Source of the DNA: Dipteris shenzhenensis
Taxonomy: Eukaryota
DNA length: 64,000 nucleotides
Reading direction: 5' to 3' (one strand)
Assembly (NCBI GenBank): GCA_047967505.1
Contig: CM106538.1
The notes under the pieces: model-generated
Database searches by the model: none
Seen by the model: the letters and a program-made list of their open reading frames with translations, nothing else
Told to the model about the DNA's origin: nothing
Translations under genes and position numbers: made by a program
Part shown: piece by piece, positions 3,001 through 43,339 of the stretch
Numbering within the stretch: position 1 is the first letter of the stretch
Layout of the letters: the number at the start of each line of letters is the position of its first letter

Positions 3001-4385
3001 GGCTTTGAAGAAAAGGGCAAAGAGCATTTGGTTTGCTAGCTGAAAAAGAGTCTCTACCACCTTAAGCAAGTGCCTAGAGAATGCTATCACAAGTTTGATA
3101 CTTTCATTTGGTCCCAGGGTTTCAAAAGAAGTGAGATTGATCACTGTCTCTACACTAAAAGGGCTAAGGATAATAGCCTGATACTCATGGCATTTTATGT
3201 GGATGATATACTATTGGCTAGCAAGAACACTTATGAGCTAGATGCATTGAAGGCCAAGTTGCATGAGGCCTTTGACATGAAGGATTTGGCACCTGTAGGT
3301 CATATACTTGGTATGTGCATCACACGTGACTGGAGTAGGAAACTTCTTTGGATTTCAGAGAAGCAGTATGTTACAAAAGTGTTGCAGCATTTCAACATGG
3401 AGGGAGGGAAGGCAGTAAGTACTCCATTGCGTCCATATGTGAAACTAAGTCAGACAAATAGTCCCAAATCAAATGAGGAGAGGGCCCTGATGGCCAAGGT
3501 TCCTTATGCATCAGCGTTTGGGAGTCTTATGTATGCTATGATAGCTACTAGACCGAACATTGCATTTGCAGTGGGAGTTGTTAGTCGGTATATGGCTAAT
3601 CCAGGAAAGAGGCATTGGGAGGTAGTTAAGTGCATCATGAGGTACATCAAGGGTACCAAGTAGATGTACATTTGCTTTGGAAGAGGAGAGATATGTGTAC
3701 TTGGATATACATATTTAGACTATGCAAACATGTGGATAGTAGGACATCCACTTCTGGTTATGTATTCACCTTTGTAGGTGGTGCAGTGTCGTGGATGTCT
3801 CATGCACAGAAGTGCTTTGCTTTGTCTATCATAGAGACCGAGTATGTTGCAGCCACATACGGTTGCAAGGAGGCTATATGGCTTGATCACAGCTAGAGGG
3901 ATATTTGGGTATTCATACATGTGTACCAACATTGCATATGATTCCATGAGTAATATTCAGCTAGTATGGAATCTGATCTTTCATGCAAAGACCAAACACA
4001 TTGAGGTCAGGTACCATTTCATCAAGTACTTGAGGACAAGCACATAGAGCTTGTTAAGGTTCATACAAATGATAACCCTGTAGACATGCTGATGAAGAGT
4101 CTACCTAGTCAGTAGTTTGAGTATTATCATGTATTGATGGGCATTGGATAGTGTGACCATTGGTTGTTCTCCCTTAAAGGCACATTGGCCTTTAAGTGGG
4201 AGGTTGTGGGGGTTAAAGGCCATTGTACCTTAACCCCAGCTATGTATAATACTCAAACACATATATATATGGATGACATAGAAGATTAGCATGTTCTGCC
4301 CCCACCAAAACTTGTATGCCTCTCTCTTCTGGGTCTCTCTCTCTCTCACCTTCTTCCATTCCACTTCCGTTGTTAATATCTCTCA
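1..4385 (+). mobile_element. Ty1/Copia LTR retrotransposon copy 1, degenerate, 5' end outside window
   Basis: gag ATG at 114, CCHC knuckle CYHCGKKGHMKNDC, GAG-pre-integrase WHCRLGH, integrase LVHSNVCGP, RT FYVDDILL, RNase H TKHIEVRYHF, stop TAG 4149-4151, PPT AAGTGGGAGG 4194-4203, 3' LTR 4205-4385; many stops and frameshifts. Confidence 0.95.
4205..4385 (+). repeat. 3' LTR of Copia copy 1 (181 bp, TG...CA)
   Basis: Starts TGTGGGGGTTAAAGG right after the PPT, ends TCTCA; homologous to the LTRs at 6057 and 11782. Confidence 0.9.
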
Positions 4386-7677: not shown

Positions 7678-10600
7678 ATGGCATCCTCTTCCATGTGTGA
7701 AAAGGAGTTTTTCAACATTAAAAAGTTTGATGGGACAAACTTTTCTTTGTGGAAAGAGCAAATAAGGGATGTGCTTATTCAAAAGAAGCAAATTAAACCC
7801 TTGGCAAGGATTGAAGCTAAGCCTGCAAATATGTTTGAGGATGATTGGAATGAGTTGGATGCATTAGCAAAATCTACTATTGGACTTTATCTTACAGAGT
7901 CAGTTTATTTCACAGTAGTAAATGAGCAGACTATGGCAGATTTGTGGAAGAAACTGTGTGCCACTTATGAAAAGGAAACTACCTCTAATAAAGTTTACCT
8001 CATGAAGAGGTTGTTTGAGCTACAGATGAAGGAAGGGGTCTCCATTCTTCTCACTTGAATGAATTCAATATTATTTTCAGCCAGCTTTAGGCTCAGAAGA
8101 TGAATTTTGATGCGGAGACTAAGGCAATATTTCTCTTATGTTCATTGCCATCCTCATGGGATACCTTCCGTATAGCTGTCAATAACTCTGCACCTGGTGG
8201 AGTACTGAAATTTGATGATGTTGTGGGTAGCTTGTTGGCCGAGGAGATTAGACAGAAGTCTATGGATGGCAACAAGCAGGATGCAGCCTTAAATGTGCAA
8301 AGGGGCAGATCACAGTTCAGGGGGAAGTCCCAAGAAAGAGGGAAGTCTCGTAGCAAATCCAGGGCACGGAACATTGAGTGTTACCACTGTGGCAAGAAGG
8401 GTCATATGAAAAAGGATTGCTACAAGCTAAAAAGAGAACAAAAGGATAAGAAAAAGAATGCAAATTGGGGTGCAAATCAAAAGGAAGAGAGTCCAAGGGA
8501 GGACAAAGGAAAAGTGAAGATCGAGGAGATCTATGCAGTCACACATGATAGTGACAATGACATTCTCTTCATGTCTAGTTTATCTGCAGAGTTGCTTAGC
8601 ACTTCAGATGATGCATACTCCTAGGATTAGATTTTGGATTTTGGTGCTTCATTCCATGTTACTCCCATAGGGAATGGTTCTCCACTTATGACAGTGGAAA
8701 GACAGGTTGTATGCATCTTGCAAATGACTATGCATGTGACATAGTGGGAGTAGGTGACATAAAGTTTTCTTTTGCAAATGGGTCTGCATTTGTTTTGAAA
8801 CATGTGAGACATGTGCCTAAGTTGACCAAGAGTCTTATTTCAGTGGGTCCGCTAGATGATGCTGGTTTTCACACCACTTTTGGCTTTCAGAGTTGGAAAA
8901 TTCAAAAGGGCTCTATGCTTTTAGCCAGGGGTGCCAAGTGTGGGACTTTGTATCCTTTACATGTATCAGGGGTATTTGATCATGTTTGTTACAATAACCG
9001 AGCAGCCAAGCACTTTTTTGTGGCATTGCAGATTGGGGCACATGAGCCAGAATGGAATAAATCTCTTATGCCATTTGGTTATGTACTGCATTTGAGTTTC
9101 TCTGATTTTGAATTTTGTGAGCACTGTCTCTATGGGAAGGAGACTAAATCAGCCCATAAAAGAAGGGGAAAGAAAGATTTTGAAAAGCTTGATTTGGTGC
9201 ATTCAGACGTATGTGGTCCCATGCCTACACGGTCATTAGGCGGGGCTAAATACTATGTGACATTCATTAATGATGCAACTAGGAAAGTGTGGGCTTATGC
9301 TATAGCTCAGAAGAGTGATGTGTTCCACGTATTTCAGAAATGGTTGGCCTTGGTTGAGAATCAGTCAGGTAGAACGCTTAAATGCCTATGGACTGACAAT
9401 GGTGGAGAGTATCTCTCTCATGCCTTTCAGCATTTCTATGATACACATGGGATTAAGAGGGAGCTCACATCCCCTCGTACTCCAGAGCAAAATCCAGTTG
9501 CAGAAAAGATGAACCGTACCATTCAAGAAAGGTTGCAATGCATGCTTTCCAATGCAAGTCTTTCTGGTGGTTTTTGGGCTGAGGCAATGAAGACTGCAGT
9601 GCATGTGATCAATAGATCACCTAGTAAGAGTTTGGATGGTGGTATTCCTGAAGAGGCATGGAGTGGCAAGAAGCCCTCTTACTCTCATCTGTGTATATTT
9701 GGGTGTAAGGCATATGCACATGTGCCGAAAGAGCTTCGAAAGAGCTAGATCCTAAGTCTAGGAAATGCATCTTTCTGGGTTATGGTGAAAGTGGAGAGAT
9801 GGGCTATCATCTCTGTGATACAGAAGCAAAGAAGATCATACACAGTCATGATGTAGTCTTCAATGAGAAGAAGATGCATAAGGCACCCATGAGGGATGTG
9901 GAAATAAGGAGAATCACTTTCTAGGATATGAATCCACCTACATATGTTGATAGACAGCAAGGTGTTCATGCACCAAATGTGCAAGAAATGGTACCACCAA
10001 GTACTCCCACAGGTATACAATCAAGGGTAGATGATGGATCATCTATTGGTGGAAATGATGAGCCAAATGTGGCTGATATGCAGGTGGGACAGCAAGCTGA
10101 AATGCCCTTGAGAAGATCATCTAGAGTGTCTAGACCGCCTGATAGGTTTGTTCCAAGGGTAGACTATGTGATGCTTATTGATTGTGGGGAGCCTTCTTGC
10201 TACAGAGAGGCTATGATGCGCGAGGATCAAAGCAAGTGGGAGTATGCTATGCAATCAGAGATGAGTTCACTTATGAAGAATAAGACTTGGGACTTGGTCT
10301 CTTTGCCACATGGAAAGAATTGCCATGTAAATGGGTCTACAGAATGAAGGTCACAGGTGATGATGTGCCTAGGTACAAGGCCCATTTGGTCGCTAAAGGG
10401 TTCAAGCAAGAGAAGGGTGTGAACTTTGATGAGATACTCTCCAGTTGTGAAGATGACCACACTTAGATGCATGCTTGGACTAGTGGCATCAGAGGATATA
10501 GAGCTTATGCAGATGGATGTCAAGACAGCTTTCTTGCATGGGGATTTGCATGAGGAAATCTGCATGGTGCAACCGAAAGGCTGTGAAGAAAAGGGCAAAG

Positions 10601-11728
10601 AGCATTTAGTTTGCAAGTTGAAGAAGAGTCTCTATGGTCTTAAGCAAGCACCTAGAGAATGGTATCAAAAGTTTGATGCTTTCATTCGGTCCCAAGTTTT
10701 AGGAGTGAAATTGATCACTGCCTCTACACTAAAAGGGCTAAGGATAATAGCCTGATAATCTTGGCACTATATGTGGATGATATGCTATTGGCTAGCAAGA
10801 ATACTTATGAGCTAGATGCATTAAAGGCCAAGTTGTATGAGGCCTTTGATATGAAGGATTTAGGGCTTGCAGGTCATATTCTTGGTATGCGCATCACACG
10901 TGATCGGAGTAGGAAACTCCTTTGGCTTTCACAAAAAGAGTATGTTACAAAAGTATTGCAACATTTCAATATGGAGGGGGGGAAGGCAGTGAGTACTCCA
11001 TTGCCTCCATATGTGAAACTGAGTCATACAAATAGTCCCAAATCAGATGAGGGAAGGGCCATGATGGCCAAGGTTCCTTATGCATCAGCATTTGGGAGTC
11101 TTATGTATGCTATGATAGGTACTAGACCAGACATTGCATTTGCAGTGGGAGTTGTTAGCCGGTATATGGCTAATCCAAGAAAGAGCATTGGGAGGCAGTT
11201 AAGTGCATCATGAGGTACATGAAGGGTACCAAGGAGATGTGCATCTGCTTTGGTAAAGGAGACATGCATGTACTTGGGTACACAGATTCAGACTATGCAG
11301 GGCATGTGGATAGTAGGAGATCCACTTCTGATTATGTGTTCACCTTTGCAGGTGGTGCAGTGTCGTGGATGTCTCGTGCACACGAGTGTGTTGCTTTGTC
11401 TACCACAGAGGCTGAGTATGTTGCAGCCACAAAGGGTTGCAAGGAGGCTATATGGCTTGATCGGCTAGTGGGAGATTTGGGGATTCATACAGGTGTACCG
11501 ACATTGCATAGTGATTCTATGAGTGCTATTTAGCTAGCACAGAATCTGGTCTTTCATGCAAAGACCAAATACATTGAGGTTAGGCACCATTTCATCAGAG
11601 AGGTACTTGAGGACAAGTGCATAGAGCTTGTCAAGGTTCATACAGATGATAACCCTACAGATATGCTGACGAAGAGTCTACCTAGTCAACAGTTTGAGTA
11701 TTATCGTGTATTGATGGGCATTGGATAG
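7678..11728 (+). pseudogene. Copia gag-pol polyprotein pseudogene
   Basis: ORF pieces 7678-8058, 8100-8624 (CCHC), 8711-9748 (integrase HSDVCGP, TDNGGEY), 10426-11213 (RT YVDDML), 11210-11533 (RNase H YTDSDYAG), separated by stops and frameshifts. Confidence 0.93.
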
Positions 11729-32999: not shown

Positions 33000-33059
<60 letters not shown>

Positions 33060-33636
33060 TACTAACGTTGTAAGAGGCCTCGCGGGCCTATGAGACAAAG
33101 TACAAGCCAAAAAGTAACTCATACAAGCCATAGAGGGCTGAAGCAAAGGGTTCACTAAGACCCTTGCTGAAAGCTAAAGTGCTAAAATGCTAAACTAGTG
33201 AATCAAGTGTCCAAATACTAGAGTAGCAAAAGCAAAATAACAGAGATAGGTGCTCAGAGCTAGCACTCCTAGTACATGCTCAGGTTCTGTATATCCAGGT
33301 AACCTAGTGGCTCTCTGATGAGATGAGAGAGAGAAAGAAAGAAAGATATATTAACGTCCAGGGAGGCCTCGCGGGCCTATGGGACAAAGTACACAGAAAA
33401 CCGAACTCATATAAGCCTCAGTGGGCTGAAGCAAAGGGCATGCTAGGACCCTTGTTGAGTATTAATCTATGCTAACAAAGTCATAATCATAGTATATAAA
33501 TAGTCAACTGCAATTGCATGCATAGTGGGCTAGATCAATCTATCCAGTATCAGAAACAAACTGAAAAACAAGTCAGTCTCGGGGTTGGTGTAGGCCATCT
33601 TCTCCCGGTCGTATTGATGCCCTCTAGGCCCTGGTA
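29585..33636 (-). mobile_element. Tandem stack of five RTE-X-like non-LTR retroposon 3' ends separated by (GA)n microsatellites
   Basis: Shared terminus (T/C)TAACGT..GA(G/A)..ATG(A/G)GACA next to GA runs at ~29640, 30508, 31566, 33063, 33352; ORF2 C-terminal RICTLCPMEEIETKEHFLC (~30365-30422) and METKEHFLCTCPIFYQIRRRY (31014-31271). Clade assignment from recalled motifs. Confidence 0.85.
31558..33003 (-). mobile_element. ORF1-only (HAL1-like) non-autonomous retroposon
   Basis: C-rich leader, broken ORF 32550-31728 with coiled coil, IRIGRLPE, AVITFKS...KVLRQSHKLKGTKVWIAEELT...KVKAARKDGKWAVY (L1-type ORF1 RRM/CTD pattern), then ~170 bp UTR and the shared tail; (TC)n on both sides; no ORF2. Confidence 0.7.
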
Positions 33637-35297
33637 TGTGCCATGTAGCTTTAATTATTGGCACTTAGGTCACCTACTCCTTTTAGTGTCTTATGACACC
33701 TAGTACTAGTGGTACCACTAGGACACTAGGTCCTAGGGTTCTCTTTCATTTTCATTCTAGTTGATTTGACGGCTTCCACTTCTTGCTCCACTCTTTTGCA
33801 TCCTTTTGCTTCCGTGAGCCTATAGTGGTATCAGAGCACTTCCTACTTGTAGATTCTTTTGCAGGCTGAAGGTGTCTCGTGTCCGTCATCTATTGGTAGG
33901 ATTCATTTACAGACTCAGCTGTGCATTTAGCCATTGTTTGGCTTCGATTTTGGGAGCAGACATTGCAGTAGATCTGCAATTTTTGGTGACATTTGGGGCT
34001 TTTGCATTTGGGCTACGATTTTGCAGGTAGATTGCAGATTTGCAGACAATTTGGGGTTTTTCCTGAATTTGCCCTATTTTTGGCTCAGCTTTGCTCTACA
34101 AATTGGGGCTTTTGGGTCTATTGCAAGCAGATTGCAGGATACTTTCAAATTTGCAGTGAATTTGGCAAGAAATTGCAGGCCATTTGATCACATTTGCAAA
34201 TTACAGCTTAATTTGGGGCTTTTCCAGATTTGGACAGCAAGTCCTATTTTTTTGCAGTTGCAAGCCTTGAGGCTATCTTTTGGGTCACTTTGTTAGTGCA
34301 TTTTTGACTTGTCCTATTTGCAATGGCTGGCAACAATCATGATTTATTTGGCGTTCTTCGTGAAGATGATAAGTTGGATGGCACCAACTATCCGATGTGG
34401 TCTTATCTCATGAATATATTCTTGTTGCAAGACATTTTTGGAACATTGTTTCTGGGATTGATCTGAGGCCAGCCAATACTGCAGTGGCTGCCCCTAATGC
34501 TGGTGCCTTTGCAGAGGGGACTCCTCTTGATGCTTTATCCTCTAGCACCCTGTTGCTGCTCCTCCAACTCAGGAACAAACAAGATGGGATGCCAGAGATG
34601 CAAATGCACATTCCTGTATTGCTTTATCATGCAAGAGAATCATTATTCCACACATCCGGTCATGCAGGACAGCAAAGGATGCTTGGGATAAATTGGCTTC
34701 TCTTTATCAGATTCGCAATGAGTCACGTGTTGCATATTTAAGAAGGCAATTGCAGGAAGTCAGCATGAATGAAGGTGACTCTATGGATGCATACTTGACC
34801 AAGGTCAAGGACCTCATGGAACAACTTGCCATTTATTGATGAGGTGGTGACAAATTCTCAGCTTGTCAGTACCACATTGAATGGGCTGCTAGATACATAT
34901 CAAGGGTTTGCTACAACCCTTCGAGTAGTGGCCATGGGTAATCCAAACCACTACTCTGATCAGCTAGTCACTTTGCTTTTGCAGGAAGAGCAAAGTCGTG
35001 CTAATAGGCAAGCTACTATTCCTGATCATGCATTTACTTCATCAGCAGAAAGGAAAAGGCAAGGCTTCCAAGCCTATGGGTAAGCCTAAATATGCGCCTA
35101 ACAGTGGCATTTCCTCCAATGTATCTCAAAATACAGCAGATAAGTCAAAGAAGAAAAGATGCAACTATTGTCGCAAGCCAAGGCATGAAATTTCAGAATG
35201 TAGGAAGTGCATTGCTTCGGAGAAGAAAGCAGGATTGACAGTAAATGCCTCACATGCAATTGAATCCCATGAGCCAGCAGATGCCTCACATGCACAT

Positions 35298-35765
35298 TGA
35301 TACGCTCACTTTTCTATTTTCACTGTTCCGTCGAATTACGGGCAATACGTAGTCACAGGCGTTGGCATCATAAGTTTTCCTCCCAGCCTCTCTTGTAGAT
35401 TGCATGCACACAAAAGATACGTAACTTTTATTTCCTTCATGCCTATCCACAAGCCCACAATTCCCTAGATAGTTCCCCCTTGCCACATGTCATCATTTTA
35501 GACCTTTAGCTTGGTACACCATTTACCCCTCTCTTGGGGCACAATTAAAACATTTGCCCCTTGGCATTATCACACATTTAGGTGCACCTAGGCCTTAGCA
35601 CTCAGAACCACCTAGTCGATGCCAATACACCCTCACCTAGGACCTTGGCAGTTACTTCCCTTGACCATTTTATTTACGCACATAAACTATTACAAAAGTC
35701 GGTCATCTAAGAGAAAATGCCCACCGATCTTTCCGAGGTCATGCTATCTCGGCTAGAGCATAACA
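35298..35765 (-). repeat. Chromovirus 3' LTR
   Basis: TG...CA, ~98% identical to 41462-41929. Confidence 0.97.
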
Positions 35766-35777
35766 TTCCTTCTCTCT

Positions 35778-38700
35778 TCAAGCATCAACGTCCTCGATGA
35801 TGAAATTTGGGAACACTCTCCGTAACTGGTATACGGATTCCCAGGTAGCTTTCGATAGAGGTAGACCATGCCATGCAACCAACACCGTGGGTATCTTCCG
35901 ATTGCACACTTGCATTGTTCCTCGGTCCAGGATTCTTGTTGGCTTGCGTCTTGCATTATCCTCTATCTCCTGAAACAAAACCACACCTTCGATTAGTAAG
36001 TCACCGGTATGCAAAAATTTTTTCAAACGAGAAACATGAAACACTGGGTGCACCTTACACCCCGGTGGTAATTCTAATTTATAGGCTACCTTGCCTATTC
36101 TTTTTAGAATTAACCATGGCCCACAATATCGAGGTGATAACTTAGTACACTCTCCTGCAGTCAAAGACTTAGAGTGCGAAGGAACTCTAAGAAAAACCTT
36201 TTCTCCTTCCTTAAATTCTCTAGCGGATCGGTTTTCATCCGCATACGCCTTAGCTCTATCCATTGCTTGGTGGATGTTAGCTCTCGCAAGTGCTAGCATC
36301 TCCCGCATTTGAACCACAAAGTTCGCGGCACTAGGCACTTTCTGAGGTATTCCAACTATAGTTGGATTCGCAGGCCTATAACCATAGTTCATCTCAAACG
36401 GACTGAACCCTGTAGAGGAATGTTTTCTATCATTGTAGGCAAACTCTAACAATGGCAACCACTTGTCCCATGTATGTTGCCTCAATGACATATATGCTCT
36501 AAGCATATTCTCTAAAATTTGGTTGATTCTTTCTATCTGACCATCCGTACGGATGATCCCCACTACTCATTCCCAACTCAGTCCTTAGTGTCTCAAATAC
36601 CGCGGTCCAATAATGACCGGTAAATTTGACATCTCTGTCTGACACTATGGATCCGGGTAATCCATGTAGACGAAATATATGTCTAATAAACAAATCCGCC
36701 ACTTGCGGGGCACTAACAGACTCTCTAGTTGGAATGAAGTGAGCCATCTTGGTAAGACGATCAACCTACAAGGATAGAATCATATCCACCTTGTGTTGTA
36801 GGCAGCCCTACAATAAAGTCCATGGAAATGCTCTCCTACTTAGTCGTATCTACAAGGGCTGTAAGAGTCCGGGTGGCTTCACCCGCTCTGCCTTACTTAC
36901 CTGACATGAAAAACAACGTGTCACATATTGATGAATATGCTTTTTCATCTTTGGCCAAAAGAAATCTCGCTTCACGAGATCATATGTCTTCATGACTCCT
37001 GGATGTCCCGCACATGGGCTATCATGGCACTGTTGAATGACTTTCTGCATGAGATCATTCTGACTAGGTACTACTACCTTGCCATTTCTTTTCAGCACAC
37101 CATCCCTTATGGCATATCTTGCATAAGTTTGGCCTTTTCTGGATGCCAGGTCATCCTTTTCCTCGGGTTTCAATACATGAGCCTTAGGCCAAAGGCTCTG
37201 GACTAACTCGTCCATCTTTTGAGTTTCTCTTATCTCGGCCATTAGAGCACTCTCTAACACCGTGAAACTCATGTTATGCATAATGCGTGACAACGCATCA
37301 TCAACTTTATTATCCTTCCCTCTTCGGTACCGAATCGTCAAATTAAACTCCTGCATGAGTTCTGCCCACCTAGCTTGGCGGCCTCTCAAGTCAGTTTGTT
37401 TACAAAAATGTTTCAGAGTATCACGATCAACATCCACATAAAACTCTGATCCATACAAATAATGTCGCCATGTTTTCAAAGCATGGACAACAGCATACAA
37501 CTCTAATTCATGAGTTGGCCAATTTCTTTGAGAGGGAGAAAGCTTCTTGCTTTCAAAGGCTACTGGCCTTCCCTCTTGGAGGAGAACTGCTCCTACCGTA
37601 ATGCCACTTGCATCGGTTTCTAGGAACAACGGTTTCTGGGATCAACTATTTTTAACACCGGTCCTGTGACCACAGCTTGTTTTATGGTGTTAAAACTTTC
37701 TTGTTGATTTTGTCCCCATATAAAAGGTACTTTCTCTGAGGTCAGATCAGTCAATGGCGATACTATTTCGGAATATCCTTTGATATGCCTTCGATAAAAT
37801 TGGACAAATCCCAAGAATGATCGCAAAGCGGTCAGACTTTGAGGGATTGGCCAAGTCAGTATCGTAGCCACTTTCTTTGGATCCATTTCCACCCCCTCTG
37901 GAGTAATTATGAATCCTAAATATTCAAGTCTAACCATACACAGTATAGTTTTCTTCTTATTTACATAAAGACTGGCTTTCCTCAAAGTAGTGAACACTAT
38001 TCTCAAGTGTTCACGATGCTCAGTAATACTTTTACTGAATACAAGAATATTGTCAATAAAATGTACTACAAACTTTCTGATATACGGACGTAGTAAATCG
38101 TTCATAAGCATGACGAATCTAGCTGGAGCATTGGTAAGTCCAAAGGGCATTACCAAAAACTCATAATGACCAAGCCTACTTCTAAAAGCGGTTTTATGCA
38201 CATCCTCGACTCTAATACGGATCTGATGGTAGCCACACTTAAGATCTATCTTACTGAAAATTACGGCCCTATGTAATGCATCTAGCAAATCATCGATCTG
38301 AGCCATCGGATACCTGTGCTTAATAGTGATATTATTCAATGCTCTGTAATCTATACAGAGACGGAAAGTATTATCTTTCTTCTTCTTTAATATCACTGGC
38401 GAAGCAAAAGGTGAAAAACTGGGTTGAATCTGCCCCAGCTTGAGGTATTCTTCCAGTTGTCTTTGCACCTCAGCTTCTTCTGTAAAGATTAATCTATAGG
38501 GAGGTCTATTTACACGTTCTGTCCCCGGGATCAGCTCAATTTTATGTTGAACATTCCGCTCTGGAGGTAACCCATAAGGTAACTCATCCCTAAAACAATC
38601 AGAGAACTTCTCCGATATCTCTTTAGCTAACTCGGCCATTTTTCCATCTTGGGTAGCCTCAGTGCTAGCCGATGCATCATCAATCGACTCTATCGATGCT

Positions 38701-40599
38701 ATACACAGACACAGAAACTCTTTTGGAGTCTTTTGAATTTCCATGGCTGAAATCAATGGTCCTCGAGGTAAATCCTTTTCACCTCGCAAAACATATTCTA
38801 CCCCGTTTATCTTGAACTGGTAAATATGCTTTTTCCAATCAATGGCTGGATTTTTTTAAAAATGCCAAGCCATGCCTAGGGCTATATCTGCGTGAGCTAG
38901 CCTGGTCAATTCAAAGTCCAGCTTCTCAACATAGTCATGAATTCGAAGTTCCAATTGGGTAACCCTCTGGTCCCATACTTCAGTTGAACTTCCGTCTGCC
39001 ATCCTGACTGTATAAGCATAATCAGACGGACTAGTTTTTAACTTGAGCCTCTTAATAAGCTTCGAGTTAATTACATTGTGTGTTGACGCTGAGTCAAACA
39101 ACACAATCACATCATGATTGGCTCTTCCCCCGCTTCGCCACAGTGCCCCGGGATGCCTTCGCTCGGTACTAGTCCCACTTCCTTCCACGCTTTTCCTTTC
39201 GGGGTGGTGTGCCGTAAGTGAGGCGGTGGGGCCCCACCCCACCAAGCCGAAAACGACTTGCCCTTTCATTTTAATCAACTCGGGCTCATCGAAAACCGTA
39301 TATCCCGTTGCTGCGGGCTTTGAAAGGATGTTATCAGGTGCACCGCTTACTAACTTAGTAACAGACACACTTAACAATACAGGTACTAACCTTTGAGAAG
39401 GTCCCGCCAATTGCGTCTGCATATGTTCCGCATTGGGACTCTCCTACATTCCCGTGTTGCATTCAGATATTATCATATTGGCCGTGCGACGATCGTTGTT
39501 TAGTGGACAATCTTTCCATTGATGTCACTGAAGGCAGCCGAAGCACAATCCCTCTTTTCTAGCTTTTTCTTTTTGCTGAGGGGTGAACGAGGACTTTGAC
39601 CAAGCCCGGGCTGCCATTGGAGTTACTTTTCTTTTCACTCCAACGGTGGTACTTGTCTTTGCTGGTCCCTCAACCGGCTTCACCTGCTTGGTTTGGCCAC
39701 TTGGCTGCGAGACACTTGTCTTTGAAGTCCATTTCCTCTGAAATCCCCCTTTTCTCGGGTATTCATGCTGAGTCCCTGCCTGCACAAACCCACTATGTCT
39801 GCCTCCTGGCATCCTCGTAGTTCAGGGCTACTGCAATGGATTCATCTAATGTAGTCACTTATTCAGCCCGAACTTCCATTTTAATCTTGTCGTTCAGTCC
39901 ATAGATATAGTCTTTCAAGTGAACCGACATAGGGAGAGGGTCTGTTATCTTCATAACACATTCCCTGAACTTGTCAGTGTACTCTGCCACCGACAAATTC
40001 CTTTGGCGAAGGTTTCTTTAAGCATCCCAAGCTCGGGACTCTTCGTCAGGTGGAAGAAAGTGTTTCTTAAATTCAGCTTTAAACCCTTCCCAGGTGGTAG
40101 GGGCAACTTGATCTTTCTGTTGCTTAATCCACCATCTATCCGCTGCCTCAATAAACAGGTGAGTGGTCTCGTGGATTTTCTTTAGATCAGATCTGATTTC
40201 ACAAATGGCGAAGGCTTCTTCCCACTTGTGTAACCAAACCTCGATCACATCAGAACTGCGCTCGGTCATCCGGCCAGCGTACTTTTCCGGTCTATAGTTG
40301 GCAATATTAGGTACCTTGACCTTTGCACGTTCTGATGAGTGTATATTGGGATCTGGCTCTGCTGGAGCTTTGCTCTTTTCATTTCTAGATGGTCTAGCCG
40401 ACAAGGCTTGTACCATCTCTCTAATTTCATTTTGATTAGCGTTCACTTGAAGCTGCTGGTTCATGATCTGCTGTAAAGCATCTTCTAATACATAAATCCT
40501 ACCTACCAGAGTAGGTGTTGTATGATGGGACACTTGTTGTGTAGATCGTGCTCTAGATTCACCAGGATTTGCCCTGGAATCTTGTCCCTCTTCCTCCAT
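35778..40599 (-). pseudogene. Chromovirus gag-pol with chromodomain, a few frameshifts and stops
   Basis: gag 40599-40018, knuckle CFGCLQ*HQWKDC, protease VLFDSASTHN, RT RLCIDYRALN / MPFGLTNAP / FIDNILV, RNase H ETDASG, integrase HDSPCAGHPG, YCGPW (GPY/F), chromodomain LVAWHGLPLSKATWES. Confidence 0.95.
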
Positions 40600-40770
40600 T
40601 CTTTAAAAAGGGAAAATAGATTTTTTTTTTTCACTTCTAATTTCCCTCTGTTGTACAGGAATAATTCGATTGCAAACTGGAAACTAAAATTTTATACAGA
40701 AGGAAAAAATGATGCTCCCTGGAAGCTCCACGAATCCCAGATGTCCAAATTTCCTTCTTCTGCCAAAGTC

Positions 40771-41036
40771 TTTGCGAAAGTGAAGATCTTCATCATCATT
40801 GATGCTGACCATGACCCAAGGTCGTTTTACTCCGATTGCCTCAACTGCTTGGATAGCTGCATTTATACCTTCCCTTATTGCGCGCACTACTGACGGATCC
40901 GGAGCACAATTGATGCAATCAACGCCAACAAGCGTGTAAATCAAGGATAGGTTGCGAACGTCAGCCACCTCCTCAAAACTTGCTCCGTAGATAAGCTTTA
41001 CCCACGTTCTTGCTACCAAGGAATCCTTGGGAGAAA
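40771..41036 (-). pseudogene. ldpA: Captured N-terminal fragment of an LdpA-like Fe-S protein gene in the chromovirus 5' leader
   Basis: SPKDSLVARTWVKLIYGASFEEVADVRNLSLIYTLVGVDCINCAPDPSVVRAIREGI...KRPWVMVSINDDEDLHFRK matches, from memory, the LdpA family pattern W.KLICGASF....R.L.L.Y.LAG.DCID.AAD..V...PW.M.S.ND.ED.HFRK. Confidence 0.85.
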
Positions 41037-41461
41037 ACTTGGATAGAAGGCAGATGAGGTGGTGAAAGCTTCGCAGCGGGTGGGAATGGTGGATGGATAA
41101 TTTGCTGAAATGGAATAAGTAAACGAGCGTGAGAGGCTGTCATCACCAAGAGCCCGTTAATGCTGGTTGCCGCCCATCGTCAGCCTACCCCGCTGATTTC
41201 CCAGGTCTCTTAGACGTAGTCCCTCGCAATGGAATCAGCCTGCTCTTCTATCACCTGCCTACGGGAACCTTGCCCTGCGACAGCTGTACCCGCTCTTGTA
41301 GCGAATCCATCAACGGCTCAGCCGCTCCATCAATGGAAGCCCGCACGAATAAAGCCATCTAAAACACACGTCGTTCGCCTCACACCCCCAATACGTCCTG
41401 CGCCTTCTTGATACGTAACTCATATGAGTCCCCTTGTCCAGCCTGAGGCTCTGATACCAAA

Positions 41462-41929
41462 TGATACGCTCACTTTTCTATCCTCACTGTTCCGTCGAAT
41501 TACGGGCAATACGTAGTCACAGGCGTTGGCATCTTAAGTTTTCCTCCCAGCCTCTCTTGTAGATTGCATGCACACAAAAGATACGTAACTTTTATTTCCT
41601 TCATGCCTATCCACAAGCCCACAATTCCCTAGATAGTTCCCCCCTGCCACATGTCATCATTTTAGACCTTTAGCTTAGTACACCATTTACCCCTCTCTTG
41701 GGGCACAATTAAAACATTTGCCCCTTGGCATTATTACACATTTAGGTGCACCTAGGCCTGGGCACTCAGAACCACCTAGTCGATGCCAATACACCCTCAC
41801 CTAGGACCTTGGCAGTTACTTCCCTTGACCATTTTATCTACGCACATAAACTATTACAAAAGTCGGTCATCTAAGAGAAAATGCCCACCGATCTTTCCGA
41901 GGTCATGCTATCTCGGCTAGAGCATAACA
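41462..41929 (-). repeat. Chromovirus 5' LTR
   Basis: TG...CA; adjacent to PBS complement GGCTCTGATACCA. Confidence 0.97.
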
Positions 41930-43339
41930 CACATGCTCTCGAGGATGATTGGGCATGGGCTGTCCATTGCTCTTTTGATCCCTCCAAAGTTGATGCATTC
42001 TTTTCTACTAATGATGCTCAGTCTTGGTATTTTGATAGTGGTGCTTCCAAGCACGTAATCTCTTGCAGACAGTTGTTTCATTCCTTGGCTAATGCTCCTC
42101 GAGGGGGGACTGTCACATGTGCTAATAATGCTTCCTATGCTGTAAAAGGAATGCTTGGTATATGATCTTCATGATGACGATGCCATAGTTCTCATTGGCA
42201 CTTTGCAAAAGGGGCTTTATCACCTTGATCATCACTCAACTGCATTTTCTATTGAAGCATTTGCTATTTCAGGTTCACAGCTTGCTGAAACTCATCTTTG
42301 GCATGAGAGAATGGGTCATCTCAATTATAGAGCTCTTGCCAAGTTACATTCACAAGGCATGTCAAATGATGTACCTCAAACTCACACAGTTTCCAAACAT
42401 GTGTGTGAGGGTAGATGCATCGGTTTCTTTTTCAAAAGGATTGTTCAAAATTCTCACAAAGGAAATTGCAGCTAGTGTACAGTGATGTCTGTGGCCCAAT
42501 GAGGACAAATGCCATTGGAGGGTACAAATGTTTCATGACTCTAATTGATGACTTCACAAGATATTGCTGGGTATATGCTTTAAAAGCCAAATCTGAAGTG
42601 TTCTCATGCTTTCAGAGGTGGCTGAATATGGTTTAGAATGAATCATGATGCAAGCTTGTCACCCTCAACACAGATAGGGAGGGAGAGTATATGTCAAAGG
42701 AGTTTGATGCTTTTTTGGCTTCACGGGGCATTGTTCACTCATGCACTACTCCTTAACTCCTTAGCATAATCCTGTTCGTGAAAGAAAGAACAGGTCCACT
42801 GTGGAGATGGCCAGATGCATGCTTAAGGCCAAGTCATTGCTTAATAAATTTAGGCTTGATGCAGTGATGTGTGCCAACTATGTGGTGAATAGATCACCTA
42901 CAAGGGCATTGAGGACTGTTATACGTTATGAAGCATGGAAAGGCAGGAAGCCTTCACTTTCACACATGAGAGTTTTTGGGTCTTTTGCATATGTCGATGT
43001 ACCATCTCAGCTGAGACATAAGCTTGATGATAAGCCAATCTGAGACATAAGCTTGATGATAAGGCAATCAAATGCATAATTATTGGTTACAGCCAGGAGA
43101 GTAGAGGGTATTGGTTGTACCAACCAAATACTGGGAAGATTATTGTCAGTAGAGATGTAATCTTTGCTGAACATTCAGTTGACTTTGACCAGCAGTATGA
43201 GCCTCCTGCAGGCCCTCCAACAAGCAATGATCAGCCAGCACCCCATGTTGATTTGCAGGTTCCTGTTCCAGCACAAAATGATCCCAATATTCATGATGCA
43301 GTGATTGAAGAAAGAGCTGTCAGTAGACAGCAAAGGCAA

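Follow-up and report, generated by a model that had tools for sequence, protein, structure and literature searches.

In retroviral oncogene transduction, a segment of spliced host RNA is recombined into the interval between the 5' long terminal repeat (LTR) region and the genes of the element, and in the maize retroelement Bs1 the captured ATPase fragment is without introns. According to the excerpted text of PMC13317346, Bs1 holds segments from three genes, joined in a chimeric open reading frame (ORF) that is expressed, and abnormal template switching between co-packaged RNAs is named as a route of capture. Two surveys, cited here from excerpts, report such events in large numbers: in maize, at least 189 captures account for the gene fragments in 425 intact elements, 168 of which are gypsy (PMC2774510), while 672 captured genes in rice and 1,343 in sorghum include many pseudogenes under neutral evolution (PMC3726574). 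Gene-fragment capture is a well-known, ordinary kind of event. We describe here what appears to be an instance of the Bs1 type, in a 64,000-nucleotide stretch of contig CM106538.1 from Dipteris shenzhenensis (GenBank assembly GCA_047967505.1); the whole of this stretch is called the window. A Ty3/gypsy LTR retrotransposon on its minus strand holds sequence derived from a host gene at 40770-41133, between the LTRs and outside the genes of the element. The explanation we prefer, with a probability of about 0.7, is that the 5' part of a spliced LdpA-like messenger RNA (mRNA) was incorporated into the leader, between the primer-binding site (PBS) and gag, where it would persist as a non-functional passenger.

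LdpA-like sequence in the retrotransposon leader

The leader between the PBS and the gag start codon is about 850 nucleotides (nt) long and contains a stop-to-stop ORF of 151 codons at 40684-41139, minus strand. Residues 35-123 of this ORF align to profile positions 3-97 of 360 in the NCBIfam model NF045992, "circadian clock protein LdpA", with an E-value of 4.6e-28. The score of 98.3 bits lies well under the 450-bit cut-off for the full protein, of which about a quarter is present. A Pfam search with the ORF found no family at E<=1, and the LdpA identity comes from NCBIfam and direct protein searches only. Among 489 longer candidate proteins, 198 match at E<=0.001, and all of the named ones are plant LdpA_C/Fer4 proteins. 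The top match is a Ceratopteris protein (E 5.4e-32), and both Ceratopteris and Adiantum fall within the four best; identity to the longer plant LdpA-like proteins is 50-69%, and never higher. An exhaustive search of representative sequences with the same ORF returned 251 matches at E<=0.001, none of them at E<=1e-30. A further search, restricted to proteins of nearly the same length, gave 14 matches among 33 candidates, none above 67% identity, and there was no ORF of another fragment-carrying copy in that set. No fusion of LdpA to gag-pol occurs among the 150 representatives listed, all of which have 680 residues or fewer. Judged by these searches, the match of the leader to LdpA is far beyond chance.

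In the protein alignment, homology runs from SPKDSL to HFRK and ends just ahead of a cysteine-rich segment with the pattern CPxxCxRPCExxCP. The likeness to cyanobacterial LdpA and to the plant LdpA-like 4Fe-4S proteins (NF045992; PF12617 with PF25160) therefore extends over the N-terminal 95 profile positions, whereas the iron-sulfur (Fe-S) cysteine segment, the LdpA_C domain and the start codon are all absent. Because the cysteines, the C-terminal domain and the start codon are missing and the score falls short of the family cut-off, the leader fragment is, on its predicted content, not a functional member of the LdpA family, and nothing in it appears to point to a function of the captured piece. 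According to a preliminary description of the locus, an element with both LTRs and a target-site duplication holds, in the interval from PBS to gag, an LdpA-like N-terminus that is cut off ahead of the cysteines that bind the cluster. The NCBIfam match and the 198 plant homologues sustain that identity, the end of the homology at HFRK agrees with the truncation, and the coordinates bear out the location. The positions it gave, its peptide and a run of eleven A residues (A11, at 40621-40631) were also as described.

Three public sequencing runs (X1, X2 and X3), each with 0.05 of the leader's sampled words, supplied contigs, which were aligned to the locus at a likeness of at least 80%; in X1 and X2, cover is lacking for much of 41139-41301 and 40335-40602, and the contigs show presence, not absence. 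One contig in each run matches the fragment, with lengths of 1420 (X1), 1425 (X2) and 1721 nt (X3). Over 40770-41048 these contigs have 12-14 other letters and a 12-nt insertion behind 40832. The interval 41046-41133 is matched as well, with four other letters in X1, for a total in that run of 13+4 = 17. Nucleotide identity between fragment and contigs over the whole of 40770-41133 (364 nt) is about 95%. Past 40770, the contigs translate by hand as K-AEFDPCDCPS, which is the LdpA-like continuation in the protein alignment. Because they run on into the remaining LdpA coding sequence, the contigs are taken to represent the parent gene; they are, on this reading, transcripts or intron-less copies of the parental LdpA-like gene in the same or closely related organisms.

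At the opposite end, the contigs reach 39-62 nt past 41133, where a hand reading gives MMSTLGWQSS, similar to the M..GWQ N-termini of the aligned fern proteins and two others. The same reading of the contig loose end places the parental start about 28 nt 5' of 41133. At 41048/41049 the fragment lacks 55 nt, represented in the contigs by 52 unaligned letters plus a 3-nt overlap of the aligned pieces. As 55 is not divisible by three, the sequence upstream of this gap and the LdpA ORF are in different frames. Translated in the frame of the parent, 41049-41132 gives SRSFTYSISANYPSTIPTRCEAFTTSSA, a stop-free, Ser/Thr-rich 28-mer. The preliminary description had instead read a Ser/His-rich, transit-peptide-like stretch upstream of the LdpA-like codons, with a frameshifted start codon near 41177. 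In view of the 55-nt gap, that stretch proves to be a chance open frame and not the parental one, and the ATG at 41177, which opens only six codons, was rejected as the parental start.

Intron content, decay and boundaries of the block

Exon structure was compared over 77 metagenome loci that encode the LdpA N-terminal region, many of them near-duplicates, with about 14 distinct sequences by eye. A single high-scoring segment pair (HSP) spans the whole query at 42 of the 77, which are prokaryote-like or cDNA-like. At 32 others, the part coding for VDC...HFRK forms a separate exon. The upstream HSP stops at the LAG residue in 26 of these 32 split loci, and 101-831 nt separate it from the VDC exon; a GT comes right after the exon-end G in 23 of the 26, is offset in L047, and is not shown in L046 and L068. 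Immediately past the HFRK codons, 30 of the 32 have GCx-G|GT, while L066 continues without an intron and L073 ends with its contig. Groups of these loci are best matched by a conifer protein, a liverwort protein, and fern proteins. Plant proteins that are mispredicted or truncated (from Vanilla, Dionaea and several others) diverge at two sites, after ...YTLAG and after HFRKA, and many short representatives start at query residues 70-73.

The leader fragment reads ...YTLVGVDCINCA... uninterrupted through the LAG|VDC site, and its LdpA homology stops at 40770, 3 nt short of the next conserved exon end. Because the LAG|VDC intron is missing, the fragment appears to stem from spliced RNA, where the intron in the parent gene of this genome is one that we infer from other eukaryotes. 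The RNA-mediated capture put forward in the preliminary description fits the missing intron, as judged against the 26 of 32 split metagenome loci.

Intron number in the LdpA-like exon region varies between plant lineages. A further intron follows query residue 21 (GASFE) in many eukaryotic loci, namely L041, L044-L049, L051, L053 and L054, and the same intron is found in the LdpA-like loci L058-L062, L065, L067, L068 and L070. Three loci whose exon 1 is best matched by fern proteins (L040, L043 and L072) are without it.

Fourteen differences from the contigs were listed, 11 of them non-synonymous and 3 synonymous in the ORF frame. If the contigs represent the older state, sense-strand G>A or C>T changes make up 8 of the 14. 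At codons 44, 51, 57, 67, 77, 80 and 88 the contigs keep the residue conserved among ferns and further plants and the fragment is derived, and the fragment has Y, V, N and P at positions with invariant C, A, D and A in the aligned proteins. These counts agree with the transition-type decay that had been proposed from C>Y, A>V and D>N, all three of which fall at otherwise invariant columns. The leader has 11 upstream ATGs, none of which opens the LdpA frame before residue 110. With 11 non-synonymous against 3 synonymous changes, its indels and its missing start codon, the piece is, so far as the sequence allows one to judge, non-coding and evolving neutrally, without constraint.

The amount of change can be set against the LTRs. 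These are 468 bp each, with TG..CA ends, and differ at 9 of 468 positions (98.1% identity). At the corresponding rate (9/468/2), 2.5 changes are expected in the 264 conserved nt of the fragment, and at least 7 polarised changes are found (Poisson P = 0.015, or 0.0013 if there are 9 changes instead of 7); the estimate counts only the 7 polarised changes and assumes equal rates and no LTR conversion. Given this excess over the LTR expectation, the divergence suggests that the cargo has been retrotransposed at least once. It is probably older than the present integration and was already decaying in the master copy.

The edges of the block are marked by an X2 contig (265 nt, depth 5.7, shorter side 39) that joins 41302 directly to 40731, skipping 570 nt. 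The 7-mer GGATTCG stands at 41302-41308 and again at 40731-40737, thus bordering the skipped block on both sides. The repeat alone was not accepted as significant, because more than 20 7-mer pairs occur in the leader by chance; what is notable is only that it stands at the two edges. Such a placement is compatible with a return to the original template by a microhomology-guided switch, or with a short duplication at that step; a deletion between short repeats, arising later in the X2 lineage, would account for it equally well. From 5' to 3' on the minus strand, the leader divides as follows.

41302-41447, minus strand: native leader, 5' part, ending with GGATTCG (41302-41308); placed by the X2 contig, which joins 41302 to 40731, and the 7-mer positions
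41162-41301, minus strand: about 140 nt inside the extra block, including the ATG at 41177; the contigs end 39-62 nt past 41133
41049-41133, minus strand: LdpA-derived, transit-peptide-like N-terminus, one base off the downstream ORF; contig pieces 41046-41133
40771-41034, minus strand: 88 codons (88-89) homologous to the conserved LdpA-like N-terminal region, SPKDSL...HFRK; at least two parental exons apparently joined without an intron
40738-40769, minus strand: 32-nt filler that separates the LdpA-homologous part from the second GGATTCG
40731-40737, minus strand: second GGATTCG copy, 3' edge of the 570-nt block; placed by the X2 contig and the 7-mer positions
40600-40730, minus strand: native leader, 3' part, including the A11 run at 40621-40631; X2 record 40628-40731 and X3 record 40489-40625

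The segment at 41162-41301 may be the 5' untranslated region of the parent or rearranged leader. An X1 contig has a loose end after 41304 that may be a weak homologue of 41301 onward, by eye and unscored, and this loose end together with an X1 joint of 41340 to 41169 suggests that 41169-41301 may be leader-like elsewhere. If the loose end is indeed homologous to 41301 onward, the "empty" X2 contig would be a deletion derivative. The X1 joint itself (side 33), like an X3 joint of 40606 to 41447 (side 21), is too short to interpret. A degenerate repeat of about 25 nt (ATTCGTG..GCTTCCA..GGAGC) flanks the extra block on the minus strand, at 41302-41350 and 40712-40737, and a related TTCCATTG motif recurs at 41227-41234.

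The A11 run was considered as the poly(A) tail of the captured mRNA and rejected. It lies about 100 nt beyond the extra block, and transposable element (TE)-like contigs of related organisms reach both its edges (40628-40731 and 40489-40625), which makes the run part of the native leader. No A-run is present where the insert ends on its 3' side, in 40738-40769.

The element and its surroundings

The carrier is a 6,632-bp element at 35298-41929, minus strand, with the paired LTRs, target-site duplication, PBS, polypurine tract and domain order of a Ty3/gypsy LTR retrotransposon. In all three public runs, loose ends of other copies stop exactly at 41929/41930, and these contig breaks confirm the LTR edge. 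Its parts, and those of the transposon that it interrupts, are the following.

41930-41934, minus strand: target-site duplication, 5' side, ATGTG as read on the minus strand; also marked by the breakpoints of other copies
41462-41929, minus strand: 5' LTR, 468 bp, TG..CA
41448-41459, minus strand: PBS TGGTATCAGAGC, 2 nt past the 5' LTR
40018-40602, minus strand: gag ORF, with its ATG at 40597-40599; Pfam Retrotrans_gag at E 2.5e-4 and 21.7 bits, below the 24.1 cut-off
35778-39443, minus strand: pol, with protease, reverse transcriptase, RNase H, integrase, SH3 and a chromodomain-like tail, from Pfam; five stop-to-stop ORFs
35766-35777, minus strand: polypurine tract AGAGAGAAGGAA, abutting the 3' LTR
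35298-35765, minus strand: 3' LTR, 468 bp
35293-35297, minus strand: target-site duplication, 3' side
34546-35297, plus strand: interrupted Ty1/copia host, gag side; Retrotran_gag_2 PF14223, E 4e-20 for 34546-34839
41935-42475, plus strand: interrupted Ty1/copia host, other half; PF22936 at E 1e-8 and PF13976 at E 1.4e-11

The PBS presumably pairs with initiator tRNA-Met, to which we assign it. Along the element, Pfam matches come in the order weak gag, protease, RVT_1 (E 2.6e-33), RNase H, integrase zinc finger and Tf2-type SH3. At the expected C-terminus of the integrase, the chromodomain PF00385 scores 19.4 bits (E 0.001), under the Pfam cut-off of 25.1, and the label chromovirus for this element is accordingly a tentative one, based on a sub-cut-off match. 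An in-frame stop between protease and reverse transcriptase, along with several changes of frame, splits pol over five stop-to-stop ORFs, which makes this copy defective. The element had been called young; that holds in a relative sense, as the LTRs are 98.1% identical but the pol frame is broken at several places. With pol broken despite such LTR identity, the master copy may already have been non-autonomous.

The gypsy insertion divides a Ty1/copia element between its gag zinc-knuckle region and its protease, and Pfam places copia Pol beta-barrel and pre-integrase domains at 41875-42475 on the plus strand. The immediate surroundings of the gypsy element are therefore a Ty1/copia transposon and not intron sequence. 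An Rfam scan of 40500-41950 gave no match at E<=1.

More copia-type ORFs (RVT_2, gag with a zinc knuckle, integrase core) lie on the plus strand at 3040-3663, 8091-9748 and 10677-11213, and the 64-kb window consists mostly of nested retrotransposons. Two direct-repeat families of about 65 nt, spaced 288-289 nt apart and starting with a GA-rich microsatellite, occupy 33036-33458, probably as a tandem duplication or a small repeat unit.

Competing explanations and known systems

Under the explanation that we prefer, capture of spliced LdpA-like mRNA, the donor would be the nuclear gene for a plastid-type LdpA-like Fe-S protein, and the captured piece would extend from about the start codon to 3 nt before the end of the exon coding for ...HFRK. 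The most likely route would be switching of reverse transcriptase onto a co-packaged host mRNA template and back, on the same principle as capture by Bs1 in maize and by the oncogene-carrying retroviruses. After capture, the piece would have changed neutrally, largely by G>A and C>T, in a master copy before the present copy integrated. No LdpA-like peptide should be possible from it, because it has no in-frame start, a frame-shifting gap, no cysteine motifs, and replacements of conserved residues. If the piece has any effect today, small RNAs made from the TE, about 95% identical to the parent mRNA, would be the only means, and this is speculation.

Several observations weigh against this explanation. 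The X2 contig is without the block, and the cargo could be private to a lineage or to this copy; no contig in the three runs joins LdpA sequence to the TE leader, and there is no second copy of the gypsy family within the 64-kb window. Chance alone gives the leader more than 20 repeated 7-mers, of which GGATTCG is one. The intron on which the RNA origin depends is known from other eukaryotes, none shown to be a close relative of this genome. The runs may come from other species, so that some of the 17 differences may lie on the lineage of the parent. The dating would lose force if the LTRs had undergone gene conversion or if LTR and leader mutate at different rates. The X2 contig, by which a related organism has a leader free of the block, the absence from the three runs of a contig linking LdpA to the leader, and the lack of another copy in the window, with the 7-nt direct repeat that bounds the block, would suit a private event after integration, in which LdpA-like cDNA or filler was patched into the leader during double-strand-break repair and never mobilised. 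This we regard as possible but unlikely: the fragment has at least 7 derived changes in 264 nt where 2.5 would be expected since integration (P = 0.015), besides two indels and a lost start codon, and the X2 contig may equally be a deletion derivative between the two short repeats. It is quite unlikely, for its part, that the 3' junction was made by splicing of a chimeric read-through transcript of host gene and retrotransposon, followed by one template switch, although such a junction is conceivable, given that the piece stops 3 nt away from an exon end that is conserved and that a 32-nt filler and a 7-nt repeat come next.

Processed pseudogenes made by long interspersed nuclear elements (LINEs) are usually truncated at the 5' side and keep the 3' end of the mRNA. 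That such a copy landed by chance in the leader could explain an intron-less fragment, a 7-nt flanking repeat that resembles a target duplication, and a downstream A11 run; but the block ends ...CTG|GGATTCG without an A-run, the A11 lies some way on in TE-like leader, and the fragment holds the 5' end of the mRNA, opposite to the usual LINE copies, so that we find this origin very improbable. We think equally little of capture at the DNA level, for example by ectopic recombination or by read-through of a flanking gene. Retrotransposons are recognised to transduce sequence by read-through (PMC13317346), but this fragment is internal, between PBS and gag and not beside an LTR, it is without the intron present at 26 of the 32 split loci, and there is no intron sequence past its end. 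A different kind of alternative holds that the piece is a retained regulatory module, either an upstream ORF (uORF) by which translation of gag is adjusted or the origin of small RNAs directed at the parent LdpA-like gene, both of which the preliminary description had raised. An identity of about 95% over 364 nt would in principle be enough for cross-targeting by small interfering RNAs (siRNAs), the 11 upstream ATGs could be cited for a uORF, and cross-talk between fragment and donor gene is discussed for maize in bioRxiv 10.1101/777037. The ratio of 11 non-synonymous to 3 synonymous changes, with the indels, speaks instead for a coding frame without constraint, and since no ATG opens the LdpA frame before residue 110, the uORF idea for gag seems weak. 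Retention as a module appears improbable.

If capture of spliced mRNA is correct, the locus would be a clean, well-delimited case in which both junctions can be read. A junction that adjoins a conserved exon end, together with bounds set by a short repeat, could help to show how plant LTR elements acquire host RNA. The phenomenon has been documented hundreds to thousands of times in grasses, and the value of this case would be illustrative, not conceptual. Should there be many carrier copies, the LdpA-like gene could be misannotated because of them, and they could also supply small RNAs that target it. A splice-made 3' junction, if true, would mean more: the full pathway of retroviral oncogene capture in a plant, possibly a fern, and a carrier family that would spread an siRNA-competent, about 95% identical 5' end of a plastid Fe-S/redox gene.

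The locus can be placed among known systems as follows. The likeness to LINE processed pseudogenes lies in an intron-less mRNA copy with a short flanking direct repeat, but this insert does not end in poly(A), and the part of the mRNA that was kept is the 5' one. Retroviral oncogene transduction resembles it in the proposed mechanism, a template switch onto spliced host mRNA; the difference is that the cargo here has no selectable function, is not fused to gag and is decaying. The captures surveyed in maize, rice and sorghum belong to the same class of event. Those surveys cover grasses, whereas the best protein matches here are from ferns; the excerpted parts of PMC2774510 and PMC3726574 make no mention of an LdpA-like donor, and their supplements may list donors. 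Closest is Bs1, in which host-gene pieces likewise lie between the LTRs of a plant LTR retroelement as passengers that mutate after capture (PMC13317346, in excerpt). The present element differs from Bs1 in holding a single fragment, in an untranslated leader and without a start codon, and in keeping, though broken, its own gag and pol.

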